The notes under the pieces were generated by a model. That model saw only the letters and a list, made by a program, of their open reading frames with translations, had not been told where the DNA came from and ran no database searches. From the sequence record OP870147.1: 64,000 nt of DNA; one strand, written 5' to 3'. This DNA comes from Escherichia phage vB_Eco_F31. The first letter of the stretch is position 1, and every line of letters begins with the position of its first letter. Positions 10,122 through 10,978 of the stretch are shown piece by piece. The position numbers were made by a program, and so were the translations under genes.

Positions 10122-10149
10122 CAAAAAGCCCCAACCTTTCGGAAGGGGC
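10122..10149 (-). terminator. rho-independent terminator (GCCCC...GGGGC + U5) closing the tRNA/small-RNA transcription unit
   Basis: Stem-loop plus CTTTTTGGCATAA on the minus strand. Confidence 0.5.
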
Positions 10150-10155
10150 TATGCC

Positions 10156-10340
10156 TTGCGGCAACCTTGTCGGGGTTCCACCTGCTAAGGCAAGTGTTTG
10201 TACGAAACGCCGGGATTTGAACCCGGTTATTAAGCAGTTGACGCTACTCAATATTTTTAAAAGGCCATATCTCGACCATATCCGAACGTTCCGTCAAAAA
10301 CGCTACTCGGCTTACGGCAAAGATATTTCCTCGAATCGAT
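10156..10340 (-). ncRNA. candidate small stable RNA downstream of tRNA-Arg (cf. T4 species 1/2 RNAs); tRNA-like T-arm CCGGG-TTCAAAT-CCCGG
   Basis: Non-coding stretch between tRNA cluster and a rho-independent terminator; T-arm-like hairpin at about 10211-10227; no full cloverleaf could be drawn. Confidence 0.3.
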
Positions 10341-10637
10341 AATTCGGTGCGCCGTTTCTGCTGTGATGTAAGGGGATATTAAAAAATCGTAAAGATTTAT
10401 TAAGACCAGTCCTTACTCAGGGAACATCAGTCCGACGACTTACCGGTAGCGACCCGGCTTCTTATTTTGGCATATCATCAATTTGCTCTCGACGCCGACG
10501 CCATAGATTAATAGCTTCATTAACACATTCGGCGTTTGGTATATGACGGCAATAATATAATGATTCGCGTTTCTGGAACCGATGTTGCAACGGGATTTCG
10601 TTTAAAAGGTCTTTACGGTCAAAGTATTCAAAACTAG

Positions 10638-10805
10638 TTAACCCGGAACGGTTTTAAGAAACTTCCAATGTCCGAATTCATTTTTAAAATAAACATAATC
10701 AGCATGTTGATATAATGAATTAATTAACCTATCGGAAATAACTGTTTCACGTTCGTTAAAATAAAACGTTAAATCATGAACTACCAGATACACATTGCCT
10801 TTCAT
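10638..10805 (-). CDS. hypothetical small protein
   Basis: ORF track 10638..10853 overlaps tRNA-Arg at its 5' end; internal ATG 10805 (MKGNVYL...) avoids the overlap. Confidence 0.3.
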   Translation of the reverse strand: MKGNVYLVVHDLTFYFNERETVISDRLINSLYQHADYVYFKNEFGHWKFLKTVPG

Positions 10806-10823
10806 ATTTTCCTCACTTGAAGT

Positions 10824-10900
10824 TGGTCGAGACAGAAGGATTCTAACCTTCAACCTACGGATTAGAAGTCCGTTGCTCTATACAATTGAGCTATGCCTCG
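10824..10900 (-). tRNA. tRNA-Arg (anticodon UCU), CCA encoded
   Basis: Manual cloverleaf: acceptor CGAGGCA/TGTCTCG, D-arm GCTC-AATTGTATA-GAGC, anticodon loop CTTCTAA, T-arm GAAGG-TTAGAAT-CCTTC. Confidence 0.8.
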
Positions 10901-10903
10901 GAT

Positions 10904-10978
10904 TGGTGACCCTGGCTGGTTTCGATCCAGCTACCTATCAGTTATGAGCTGACAGCTCTCCCATTGAGCTACAGGGCC
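10904..10978 (-). tRNA. tRNA with CAU anticodon (Ile by lysidine modification, or Met), CCA encoded
   Basis: Manual cloverleaf: acceptor GGCCCTG/CAGGGTC, D-arm GCTC...GAGC, anticodon loop CTCATAA, T-arm GCTGG-ATCGAAA-CCAGC. Confidence 0.75.

Follow-up and report, generated by a model that had tools for sequence, protein, structure and literature searches.

The region described here is very likely the tRNA operon of an RB69-like (Mosigvirus) T-even phage, in which two tRNA genes are followed by counterparts of the T4 small stable RNAs, species 2 (rnaD) and species 1 (rnaC). The type of locus is ordinary and already known, the two structured RNAs being those of T4. The analyzed sequence is a 64,000-nt stretch from Escherichia phage vB_Eco_F31 (OP870147.1; hereinafter, the window), for which Mosigvirus phages are the best matches, with 93-98% identity. 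All features of the tRNA/rnaD/rnaC locus are carried by the minus strand; the identities of the parts of the operon were assigned by sequence. The features, given in window coordinates and in 5' to 3' order on the minus strand, are:

11041..11067, minus: candidate T4-type middle promoter; MotA box TTTGCTTTA at 11067-11059, 12-nt spacer, -10 element TATTAT at 11046-11041
10904..10978, minus: tRNA with anticodon CAU (ARAGORN; Rfam RF00005, 59.4 bits)
10824..10900, minus: tRNA-Arg with anticodon UCU, reading AGA (ARAGORN; Rfam RF00005, 71.1 bits)
10462..10805, minus: homolog of RB69ORF150c (phrog_3355) in two pieces, a 55-aa ORF at 10805-10638 and a 42-aa ORF at 10590-10462
10346..10465, minus: rnaD ortholog, 120 nt; aligned end to end with annotated T4 rnaD at about 88% identity, ends taken from the T4 annotation
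10458-10442, minus: 5' hairpin of rnaD
10439-10433 with 10354-10347, minus: closing helix of rnaD, GUCGUCG with CGGCGCAC
10340..10345, minus: rnaD/rnaC spacer GAAUUA (AAAUUA in T4), an A/U-rich single-stranded stretch
10201..10339, minus: rnaC ortholog, 139 nt; 136 of 139 positions identical to T4 rnaC, ends taken from the T4 annotation
10338-10332, minus: 5' strand of the rnaC acceptor stem
10331-10262, minus: long arm of rnaC, apical loop UUGACG at 10297-10292
10261-10254, minus: A/U linker of rnaC
10253-10228, minus: 10-bp hairpin of rnaC, loop CGUCAA at 10243-10238
10226-10210, minus: T arm of rnaC
10209-10203, minus: 3' strand of the rnaC acceptor stem
10150..10200, minus: conserved 3' trailer within the block shared with T4, with a predicted hairpin CACUUGC-CUUA-GCAGGUG at 10196-10179
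10123..10149, minus: intrinsic terminator, GCCCCUUCC-GAAA-GGUUGGGGC followed by UUUUU; fold -18.2 kcal/mol

Layout of the locus and comparison with T4 and RB69

A preliminary description of this region, two tRNAs with a structured non-coding stretch downstream, is confirmed as a whole. The features that it laid out are real, but it left the minus strand unstated and overlooked the location of rnaD, ORF150c and the middle promoter. Likewise, the interval 10156-10340 is indeed non-coding as described, but the true extent of the non-coding stretch is from 10122 to about 10461-10465, and rnaD lies outside the original sub-range. The suggestion that this stretch corresponds to T4 species 1 and 2 holds, given the near-identity of 10339-10201 to T4 rnaC and the alignment of 10465-10346 to the full length of T4 rnaD, and so does the statement that these RNAs follow tRNA-Arg in T4, where the annotated order is tRNA-Arg, rnaD, rnaC. 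The block that consists of rnaD, rnaC and the trailer is 92.6% identical to T4, compared to 70-82% for the flanking protein genes, and the predicted fold of the 361-nt region is far more stable than those of shuffled sequences (z = -6.8).

In T4, rnaC (species 1, 139 nt; NC_000866, 70908-71046) is located, as in the window, between rnaD and a conserved trailer with terminator, and its predicted fold is the same. The window copy differs by three substitutions, including a G to A change at the T-loop purine position and one that turns a U-A pair into U.G. The surrounding operon also differs: the window has two tRNA genes instead of the eight that T4 was correctly said to carry, lacks segB, and contains ORF150c as an insertion upstream. 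The locus of RB69 and other Mosigviruses shows the same order as the window, with RB69t002 (tRNA-Met, CAU), RB69t001 (tRNA-Arg, UCU) and ORFs 151c and 150c; the two-tRNA set of RB69 has been published (PMC1524935). The RB69 reference record has no annotation of rnaC or rnaD, and the frameshift in ORF150c is a feature of the window copy that sets it apart from RB69. Some Mosigviruses (PhAPEC2, ST2), unlike the window, encode an additional tRNA-Asn.

The two tRNAs and ORF150c

Both tRNA genes form cloverleafs with anticodons called by ARAGORN (UCU and CAU) and score above the RF00005 gathering threshold of 29 bits. Their coordinates had been given exactly, and the 3-nt gap between the CAU tRNA and tRNA-Arg (AUC) and the CCA encoded at the 3' end of each gene, both noted previously, can be read directly from the sequence and the alignments. 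Searches of the 64-kb window with ARAGORN and Rfam detected no further tRNAs, in agreement with the earlier count of two.

The CAU tRNA shares the acceptor stem and the D arm with T4 tRNA-Ile, the gene of which also reads CAT; no differences occur in the first 18 nt or in the 3' acceptor strand. With acceptor strands GGCCCUG and CAGGGUC, the stem has an elongator-type G1-C72 pair, indicating that this is not an initiator tRNA. The stem also contains the pairs C4-G69 and C5-G68, which Ikeuchi and colleagues are said to have identified in 2005 as determinants of recognition by TilS. The closest matches of the CAU tRNA in E. coli are annotated as tRNA-Ile, and CAU tRNAs of T4-like phages have been classed as putative lysidine tRNA-Ile (Nolan et al. 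2006; PMC1524935). Judging from these sequence features, the CAU tRNA is probably a lysidine-type tRNA-Ile2 that reads AUA. In the window ORFs, AUA accounts for 18.9% of the Ile codons and AGA for 18.4% of the Arg codons. Given the similarity to T4 tRNA-Ile, the C4-G69 and C5-G68 pairs, the published classification and these codon shares, the previously proposed decoding of AUA and AGA by the pair is reasonable, and the two tRNAs would supply decoding of codons that are heavily used by the phage. The tRNA-Arg(UCU) is only about 42% identical to T4 tRNA-Arg(UCU) and accordingly does not appear to be a simple ortholog.

In the ORF150c homolog that separates tRNA-Arg from rnaD, an A-run near 10643-10646 has apparently lost 1 nt, which splits the ORF; across the respective 101-nt stretch, all listed relatives are one base longer. 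The stop codon of ORF150c overlaps the 5' end of rnaD. This homolog matches phrog_3355, a PHROG family of unknown function, and has no Pfam match; for the flanking ORFs, PHROG and Pfam searches retrieved only families of unknown function.

Identity and predicted structure of rnaC

The assignment of 10201-10339 to rnaC rests on full-length homology, a shared structure and the same-strand location downstream of tRNA genes. A covariance model built from 17 relatives from other genera yielded a single match in the window, at 10198-10339 on the minus strand (146.3 bits, E about 1e-30), which is full-length and includes no non-standard pairs; the conserved UACAA tail of rnaC extends to 10198. In the record of the Mosigvirus ATK47, the homologous position carries an rnaC annotation. 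In infected cells, a discrete, stable rnaC of about 140 nt has been demonstrated only for T4 (PMC9697503); RNAC and RNAD have been detected by Northern blot, and the literature assigns no function to them (PMC9697503, PMC3014915). No Rfam family covers rnaC or rnaD, either at the gathering threshold or at E<=10; the opposite strand yielded a weak match to isrK (E = 1), considered a chance hit.

On its own, rnaC folds better than shuffled sequence (z = -4.0), and RNAalifold independently predicts a four-way junction. Over 46 pairs of the structure, 98.6% of the alignment cells are paired, a level reached by none of 500 shuffles and compared to 35-46% paired in slid controls, and 27 of the 46 pairs show changes on both sides. 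In particular, the third pair of the acceptor stem (alignment columns 4 and 139) switches from A-U to G-C (11 versus 13 sequences), and the middle pair of the T stem (columns 120 and 132) switches from G-C to U-A. The acceptor-like stem consists of 7 bp with two invariant U.U mismatches and is stacked on the T arm; the palindrome CCGGG-UUCAAAU-CCCGG that had been recognized as a T arm is located at 10226-10210, one base off the original estimate. This covariation supports a model in which rnaC is a tRNA mimic with cloverleaf topology. Winklervirus-like copies of rnaC have UGCAUGC instead of the T-loop consensus, which makes a strict tRNA-mimic interpretation less secure.

The two apical loops of rnaC (UUGACG and CGUCAA) are mutually complementary, and the loop-loop helix is intact in each of the 24 sequences, including the Klebsiella Marfavirus lineage, where both loops have changed in concert, to UUGGCG and CGCCAA. 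A stricter end-anchored scan yielded no further copies except Marfavirus-like ones, so that the covariation of the loops still amounts to a single event. The loops may form a kissing interaction, but the covariation in its favor comes from this one lineage, and both loops are otherwise invariant.

In the minimum free energy fold of the 361-nt region, the 3' acceptor strand of rnaC pairs with GAAACG at the end of rnaD. This pairing was rejected as the mature structure because phages that lack rnaD keep the stem and because columns 4 and 139 covary within rnaC. Given that alternative folds are within about 4 kcal/mol, pairing with the rnaD element may represent an alternative conformer of the precursor.

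The structure of rnaD

The assignment of rnaD is based on homology to T4 rnaD and on the location directly 5' of rnaC, with a 6-nt spacer. T4 rnaD (species 2, 119 nt; NC_000866, 71053-71171) agrees with the window copy in the conserved blocks at either end and in the closing helix, whereas the apical hairpin, which varies by lineage, contains substitutions and indels in the window; the overall identity is about 88%. T4 rnaD begins 1 nt after tRNA-Arg; in the window, ORF150c intervenes. Among 16 distinct sequences, 97.3% of the cells of the consensus structure are paired (31-51% in slid controls), with compensatory changes in 6 pairs; the closing helix is invariant, and this evidence of covariation bears on the other helices. 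A convergent single-nucleotide change in rnaD has been observed during the adaptation of a T4-like phage to a semi-permissive host (PMC12685909).

Transcription and processing

T4-type middle promoters were defined as a MotA box, (a/t)(a/t)(a/t)TGCTT(t/c)A, located 11-13 bp before a TAnnnT -10 element. The sequence TTTGCTTTA-N12-TATTAT (11067-11041) conforms to this definition and has a predicted start near 11033. The abbreviated pattern TGCTTYA-N11-13-TANNNT, which matches at 11041-11065, occurs 8 times in the window versus 1.7 expected. The promoter block is conserved with RB69 and with the T4 sequence just upstream of tRNA-Gln; this T4-conserved candidate replaced a MotA box first picked by eye, GGTGCTCTA. 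No exact late promoter (TATAAATA) is present within 10100-11100. For T4, a middle promoter immediately upstream has been reported to drive the tRNA cluster, which yields a single primary transcript that ends after the species I RNA (PMC2330249). In the window, by sequence, the candidate middle promoter probably directs transcription of the entire unit, which is about 910 nt long.

At the other end, the G+C-rich hairpin at 10149-10123, directly followed by a U-run, bears out the rho-independent terminator that had been placed at the end of the stretch, and the homologous stretch of PhAPEC2 is annotated as an ARNold terminator. A simple consensus terminator scan did not detect 10149-10123 due to a 2x2 U.U internal loop in the hairpin. 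The 3' trailer that precedes the terminator is kept in phage SHP1 although rnaC is missing there.

T4 species 1 and 2 are processed by RNase E and RNase P, and T and pseudouridine are present in T4 species 1. The predicted transcript of about 0.9 kb that runs from the MotA-type middle promoter to the terminator would contain, in this order, tRNA-Ile2(CAU), tRNA-Arg(UCU), the frameshifted ORF150c, rnaD and rnaC, and the RNAs would be excised by the tRNA maturation machinery of the host. RNase P would cut at the 5' ends of the tRNAs and at or near the acceptor stem of rnaC. The GAAUUA spacer is, as we assume from the classical T4 processing literature, the likely site of an RNase E-type endonuclease, such that a cut within the RAUUA sequence would separate rnaD from rnaC, and a 3' exonuclease would trim the RNA back to the stem. 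A literature search for the classical precursor name p2Sp1 produced no match.

Distribution of rnaC and rnaD

Relatives of rnaC were identified in at least 8 phage genera, in about 800 phage records. In EcS1, fGh-Ecl01, CW742, RZH and Virsaitis27, rnaC occupies a tRNA slot, and within the tRNA arrays of other genera, it is separated from the flanking tRNAs by 2-6 nt. Conversely, the Dhakavirus phages SHP1 and UP19 lack rnaC, and rnaD is confined to four genera; thus, each of the two RNAs is dispensable in some lineages. IMG/VR, GTDB genomes and metagenomes were scanned with loose motifs, which produced mostly chance matches, and filtering of these with nhmmer left only contigs of T4-like phages. 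Among the 115 matches in bacterial genomes, none was a real rnaC; the scan was limited to a pattern, and this result does not imply absence from bacteria.

Possible functions of rnaC

Orphans since the 1970s, rnaC and rnaD rank among the longest-known phage RNAs to which no function has been assigned. The order of the four arms around the junction of rnaC is that of canonical tRNAs (RF00005), and rnaC also has in common with them an acceptor-like stem of 7 bp, which stacks directly on a T stem of 5 bp, and a UUCRAAU loop of 7 nt. In contrast to canonical tRNAs, it is 139 nt long, contains two U.U mismatches in the acceptor stem, has a 6-nt hairpin loop in place of the 7-nt anticodon loop, and lacks the D arm and the CCA end, the tail being UACAA. 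The tRNA-like domain of tmRNA and YrlA are non-decoding RNAs that offer an acceptor/T-arm mimic to tRNA-recognizing proteins, which rnaC resembles in principle only. Compared to tmRNA, rnaC lacks a tag ORF, and ARAGORN makes no tmRNA call. The sole match of the YrlA family (RF02553; E = 2.9) falls on the real tRNAs and not on rnaC, and the ends of YrlA close a Ro-binding helix, whereas those of rnaC close the acceptor-like stem.

The tRNA-like fold would make rnaC stable. Our preferred guess is that rnaC mimics a tRNA but, having neither an anticodon loop nor a CCA end, is not chargeable, and that its partner is a protein, of the host or of the phage, that recognizes the acceptor/T-arm helix. 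If so, the function of rnaC would be accessory and host-dependent rather than one in decoding. A more specific version of this idea, which we put forward tentatively and with low confidence, is that rnaC is a tRNA-shaped decoy, retained by many T-even-like phages of Enterobacterales, held in a compact shape by the kissing helix and matured by tRNA-processing enzymes, that binds and thereby blunts or redirects a host protein recognizing acceptor/T-arm helices. Examples of conceivable targets are a tRNA-directed defense toxin or a processing enzyme. The decoy reading would fit the dispensability of rnaC in laboratory hosts and the host-adaptation change in the neighboring rnaD and, if true, would provide a function and a testable structure for RNAs that have no Rfam family. 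The covariation-backed mimic model, the co-changing complementary loops and the tRNA-slot position in other genera provide handles for experiments.

The structured block might instead be a cis-acting module of the tRNA operon, a protective, terminator-proximal 3' structure and an entry platform for RNases P and E, with no function in trans, so that the stable fragments would be by-products. This possibility, to which we also assign a low probability, is in line with the invariable cotranscription of the RNAs with tRNAs or their embedding in tRNA arrays, with the conservation of the 3' trailer and terminator along with the RNAs, with the loss of either RNA in some lineages, and with the lack of a known target of rnaC or rnaD in the literature. 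It is harder to reconcile with the location of rnaC in arrays, away from the operon 3' end, and with 97.9% identity of rnaC between genera whose proteins differ by 20-30%. Furthermore, the loops and the U.U mismatches of rnaC are invariant while the stems covary, and a specific interaction surface fits this pattern better than a generic protective hairpin.

That rnaC, rnaD or both are regulatory small RNAs that base-pair with host or phage mRNAs appears improbable. These RNAs are abundant, stable and small (PMC9697503) and include conserved single-stranded A/U-rich segments, namely the linker at 10261-10254 and the UACAA tail, as a regulator of this kind might; however, the invariant loops of rnaC are complementary to each other rather than free, and the mature RNAs have no terminator with a U-tail of their own.

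The notion of a degenerate tRNA, raised as an option in the preliminary description, captures the shape of rnaC (the cloverleaf topology, the acceptor-like stem and the T arm) but goes no further than shape: neither the tRNA model (RF00005) nor tmRNA produces a match on 10201-10339 at E<=10, and rnaC has neither a 7-nt anticodon loop nor a 3' end that carries CCA or to which CCA could be added. In its strong form, under which the region would be a tRNA pseudogene, decayed or reduced to a remnant and free of selection, this explanation is highly improbable. It would account for the cloverleaf-like topology and for the presence, immediately downstream of genuine tRNAs, of a T arm and an acceptor strand like those of a tRNA, but it is already contradicted by conservation and covariation in the sequence comparisons, in which rnaC is conserved far above the neighboring genes, with 27 covarying pairs and its wide distribution among phage genera, and, in T4, a discrete, stable RNA is expressed.

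Finally, it is barely conceivable that the stretch encodes small proteins: ORFs of such size exist (74 aa, 10118-10342, plus strand; 49 aa, 10102-10251, minus strand), and many GenBank records give "hypothetical protein" over the match, but the substitutions are paired compensatory changes, relatives (for example, L016, RZH and L013) have 1-2-nt indels within the stretch, and what T4 makes from it are RNAs. The appropriate labels for the non-coding stretch are rnaD and rnaC, in place of the blank in the RB69 reference record and of the hypothetical proteins in these GenBank records. The alignment would be sufficient to seed an RNA family.

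Identity of the structured region and organization of the operon

The 361-nt segment from 10470 to 10110 folds far better than shuffled sequence (z = -6.8), in agreement with the preliminary description, which had proposed a structured non-coding region here. We are confident that this region consists of homologs of two small stable RNAs of phage T4, rnaD (species 2) and rnaC (species 1). In the T4 annotation, tRNA-Arg is followed on one and the same strand by rnaD (119 nt) and rnaC (139 nt); positions 10465-10346 of the window match T4 rnaD from end to end with about 88% identity, the differences clustering in the apical hairpin, and positions 10339-10201 are identical to T4 rnaC at 136 of 139 positions. 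The six bases between the two RNAs read GAAUUA in the window and AAAUUA in T4, and about 50 nt of trailer together with the terminator are also conserved; across the entire block 10118-10467, identity to T4 is 92.6%, compared with only 70-82% for the shared flanking protein-coding genes. In the sister Mosigvirus ATK47, an ncRNA annotated as "rnaC; small stable RNA; species 1 RNA" occupies the position homologous to 10200-10338. The alignments with T4 thus bear out the main interpretation offered earlier, a correspondence to species 1 and 2. The sub-range singled out for it, 10156-10340, contains rnaC but misses rnaD, which lies further upstream in the transcript, and the T-arm-like palindrome CCGGG-UUCAAAU-CCCGG is present at 10226-10210. 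Small ORFs overlie rnaC and rnaD (10118-10342, plus strand; 10102-10251, minus strand), and many GenBank records call "hypothetical protein" CDSs there, which are probably mis-annotated RNA genes.

Matches to the 981-nt stretch of this locus occur in 851 phage records, the best of them in Mosigvirus (RB69-like phages, e.g. mobillu, moha, ATK47 and Shf125875; 93-98% identity). The window shares its layout with the RB69 reference record (RB69ORF151c, tRNA-Met(CAU), tRNA-Arg(UCU), RB69ORF150c), which leaves the next ~430 nt unannotated. We therefore assign the locus with confidence to the RB69-type tRNA operons, with the following elements:

Elements of the operon in transcript order
11067-11041, minus strand: textbook T4 middle-promoter motif (MotA box TTTGCTTTA, 12-bp spacer, -10 TATTAT), directly upstream of the tRNAs
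10904-10978, minus strand: tRNA(CAU) (ARAGORN; Rfam tRNA model, 59.4 bits)
10824-10900, minus strand: tRNA-Arg(UCU) (ARAGORN; Rfam tRNA model, 71.1 bits)
10805-10462, minus strand: ORF, RB69ORF150c homolog
10465-10346, minus strand: rnaD
10339-10201, minus strand: rnaC
10150-10200, minus strand: 3' trailer with a 7-bp hairpin at 10196-10179, conserved with T4
10149-10123, minus strand: terminator, GCCCCUUCC-GAAA-GGUUGGGGC followed by UUUUU (-18.2 kcal/mol)

The rho-independent terminator previously placed at the end of the region is supported by this hairpin and U-run and by the ARNold terminator annotated in the homologous stretch of PhAPEC2; a simple consensus terminator scan did not pick up 10149-10123 because the stem contains a U.U/U.U internal loop. 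The 3' trailer is kept even in phages from which rnaC is deleted.

The block bearing the promoter motif is conserved in RB69 and in T4, where it precedes tRNA-Gln. In T4, a middle promoter lies just upstream of the cluster and a single primary transcript ends after species I RNA (PMC2330249). By homology, this picture would hold for the window, where use of the promoter would yield a predicted transcript from ~11033 to ~10123, roughly 910 nt; no exact late promoter was found inside the unit. The MotA-box/-10 motif is matched 8 times in the window, versus 1.7 expected (among the others, 33515-33540, 48084-48109, 53524-53548 and 57699-57724), and the late-promoter motif TATAAATA has 18 exact copies versus 7.6 expected, counts that fit a T-even transcription programme.

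Covariation-supported fold of rnaC

Relatives of rnaC were collected from a phage collection, IMG/VR and metagenomes, and candidates were filtered with nhmmer. The resulting alignment contains 24 distinct sequences from Mosigvirus, Tequatrovirus, Karamvirus, Kagamiyamavirus, Kanagawavirus, Winklervirus and Marfavirus, along with VR25 and IMG/VR contigs, with identity to the window as low as 58%. RNAalifold predicts a four-way junction, and pair counts on our model of the fold support it strongly: 98.6% of the cells in its 46 pairs are standard pairs, and 27 of these pairs vary in both partners. Such values were not attained by any of 500 shuffles, and slid controls are only 35-46% paired. The fold comprises:

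Elements of rnaC, 5' to 3'
acceptor-like stem: 7 bp, CGAUUCG with CGUUUCG, two central U.U mismatches invariant
long arm: directly after the acceptor 5' strand, closed by AGG/CCU
linker: A/U-rich, ~8-10 nt, between the long arm and the 10-bp hairpin
10-bp hairpin: after the linker, before a single A and the T arm
T arm: one A after the hairpin, middle pair switching from G-C to U-A
tail: conserved UACAA

The third acceptor-like pair alternates between A-U and G-C (11 versus 13 sequences), and in some genera the sequence of the long arm is wholly replaced with pairing retained. The window rnaC folded as a single sequence adopts the identical structure (z = -4.0). A covariance model built from only 17 relatives, all outside the Tequatrovirus/Mosigvirus group, finds a single match in the window (10198-10339, minus strand; 146.3 bits, E about 1e-30), full length and with all pairs standard. 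As in a tRNA, the acceptor 3' strand immediately follows the T stem; unlike a tRNA, rnaC has neither a 7-nt anticodon loop nor a CCA end and does not match the tRNA model. We are confident that it is a tRNA-shaped RNA unable to decode. In Winklervirus-like rnaC (L020:1434-1574, L108:2498-2640 and L126:4200-4342), UGCAUGC or UGCAUC replaces the canonical UUCRAAU T-loop and the T stem is retained.

The apical loop of the long arm, UUGACG, is perfectly complementary to the loop of the 10-bp hairpin, CGUCAA, and both are unchanged in 23 of the 24 sequences, even on completely different supporting stems. The Klebsiella Marfavirus lineage (P545, and four contigs from IMG/VR or metagenomes) instead carries UUGGCG and CGCCAA, so that A-U has been exchanged for G-C in concert. 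The matched loop pairs have estimated duplex energies of -5.5 and -7.6 kcal/mol, the two mismatched combinations -4.9 and -0.4 kcal/mol. The loops are thus likely to form an intramolecular kissing helix, a reading we hold short of proof because one evolutionary event supports it; possibly, the helix forms dimers instead.

The rnaD alignment comprises 16 distinct sequences, all from Tequatrovirus, Mosigvirus, Dhakavirus or Gaprivervirus, in all of which three elements recur: a hairpin at the 5' end (RCCGG-GUCGCUA-CCGGY), a closing helix that is invariant (GUCGUCG with CGGCGCAC) and an irregular stem, the tip of which comes in three or four versions unrelated to one another. Pairing reaches 97.3% in the consensus, where six pairs show compensatory change, versus 31-51% in slid controls; the modeled fold is moderately supported, the invariant closing helix showing no covariation. 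CCGGG is common to the rnaD 5' hairpin and the rnaC T stem (10198-10465, minus strand), GAAACG, close to the 3' end of rnaD, is complementary to the 3' acceptor strand of rnaC, and for the dimeric rnaD-rnaC precursor, alternatives to the two-module fold lie within about 4 kcal/mol of it.

Modularity, proposed maturation and possible roles

Outside the T4-like arrangement, rnaC occurs within tRNA arrays:

Neighbors of rnaC
fGh-Ecl01: tRNA-Trp upstream (5 nt), tRNA-Gly downstream (3 nt)
CW742: tRNA-Trp upstream (6 nt), tRNA-Gly downstream (2 nt)
RZH: tRNA-Trp upstream (6 nt), tRNA-Gly downstream (3 nt)
EcS1: tRNA-Phe upstream, tRNA-Trp downstream (5 nt)
Virsaitis27: tRNA-Ile upstream (84 nt), tRNA-Trp downstream (5 nt)

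All five phages lack rnaD, and rnaC without rnaD is found in Karamvirus, Kagamiyamavirus, Kanagawavirus, Winklervirus and Marfavirus. Conversely, the Dhakaviruses SHP1 (a Salmonella phage; L007:1203-1400) and UP19 (L134:599-800) keep rnaD, joined straight to the conserved 3' trailer, and lack rnaC. The two RNAs are therefore separable modules, and rnaC is treated as one more tRNA of the array. In the array of the Enterobacter phage CW742 (Karamvirus), a homing-endonuclease gene (L022:596-1210), analogous to segB of the T4 tRNA cluster, lies between tRNA-His and tRNA-Ser.

Occupancy of a tRNA slot is the best evidence available for how rnaC is made, and on this ground we propose a maturation route. 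In the arrays, cutting of the next tRNA at its 5' end by RNase P would free the 3' end of rnaC, which exonucleases could trim back toward the stem; the 3' end annotated in T4 lies two bases past the stem. The 5' end could come from endonucleolytic cleavage of the A/U spacer, from RNase P acting at the acceptor-like stem, or from both. These enzyme assignments are inferred, in part from the classical T4 literature. Both RNAs are likely released by host tRNA-processing enzymes and stabilized by their compact folds.

A 2010 T4 review states that no biological role is known for RNAC or RNAD (PMC3014915), and a 2022 omics study describes them as late-accumulating, Northern-confirmed RNAs of unknown function (PMC9697503). 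In a 2025 study that adapted a T4-like phage to the semi-permissive host ECOR34, every line showed one convergent SNP in rnaD (PMC12685909). Scanning one genome per bacterial species with a sequence pattern yielded no genuine rnaC homolog within the reach of that pattern. Our guess, to which we assign a rather low probability, is that rnaC is a protein-binding tRNA mimic, because the invariant U.U pairs, loops and tail resemble a recognition surface, some lineages do without rnaC, and the rnaD SNP is suggestive of a role that depends on the host. Rival explanations are a purely cis-acting processing or stability module, with the stable fragments as by-products, and a base-pairing regulatory RNA. 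Conservation and covariation contradict, and effectively exclude, both a decayed tRNA remnant, the degenerate tRNA considered in the preliminary description, and the coding of small proteins.

Knowledge of species 1 and 2 RNAs goes back to the 1970s, the RB69 two-tRNA set is published and rnaC is annotated in a sister Mosigvirus, so the finding itself is already known; given the 1975 sequencing papers, we do not claim the rnaC fold as new. Possibly useful beyond annotation are the covariation-supported tRNA-mimic model with its kissing-loop pair, the distribution of rnaC across tRNA arrays in other genera, and the standing of rnaC and rnaD outside Rfam, in which neither matched any family.

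The tRNA pair and the intervening ORF

Across the full 64-kb window, ARAGORN detects two minus-strand tRNA genes and no others, and Rfam at gathering thresholds (29 for the tRNA model) reports nothing else. The CAU and UCU pair described earlier thus stands, now with its strand, and no third tRNA emerged; the genes are separated by AUC (10901-10903, minus strand), and both encode a 3' CCA, again as described.

The first 18 nt and the 3' acceptor strand of tRNA(CAU) are common to T4 tRNA-Ile, whose gene is likewise CAT by ARAGORN, and its nearest E. coli matches are annotated as tRNA-Ile. Since G1-C72 is paired, it is not an initiator; C4-G69 and C5-G68, which let lysidine synthetase tell tRNA-Ile2 from tRNA-Met, are present. 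These features are evidence for a putative lysidine-type tRNA-Ile, such as reported in all tRNA-bearing T4-like genomes, RB69 included (Nolan et al. 2006; PMC1524935). In 62 long ORFs of the window, 18.9% of Ile codons are AUA and 18.4% of Arg codons are AGA, at 13.8 and 8.0 per 1000 codons, respectively. Both figures are several-fold above E. coli usage. With this usage and the tRNA-Ile-type features, the earlier rationale that the retained pair serves AUA and AGA is reasonable, and essentially published before.

The tRNA-Arg(UCU) (10824-10900) is only ~42% identical to that of T4 (L003:2674-2748) and, from this divergence, looks replaced rather than co-inherited with rnaD and rnaC. The adjacent rnaC is 97.9% identical to T4.

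Between tRNA-Arg and rnaD lies the RB69ORF150c homolog, which the preliminary description did not mention; the protein has 114 aa in ATK47 and RB69, belongs to phrog_3355 (function unknown) and has no Pfam match. An A-run (10638-10650, minus strand) has four A's in the window and five in ATK47, and every listed relative has one more base across this stretch; the 1-nt deletion therefore breaks the frame, leaving ORFs of 55 and 42 aa, and reflects either an error in sequencing or a pseudogene specific to this strain. An ORF likewise occupies this position in T2-type phages, whereas in T4 and Dhakavirus rnaD directly follows tRNA-Arg.

A third tRNA, Asn(GUU), lies between the CAU and UCU tRNAs in several relatives (PhAPEC2, ST2, SHP1, SP18 and UP19; e.g. 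L002:2331-2405 and L007:1047-1121), among them some Mosigviruses and Dhakaviruses. It is missing from vB_Eco_F31, with its 3-nt spacer, and from RB69 and ATK47; in T2-type phages, the tRNA-Asn gene contains the preferred site of the SegB homing endonuclease (PMC2330249).
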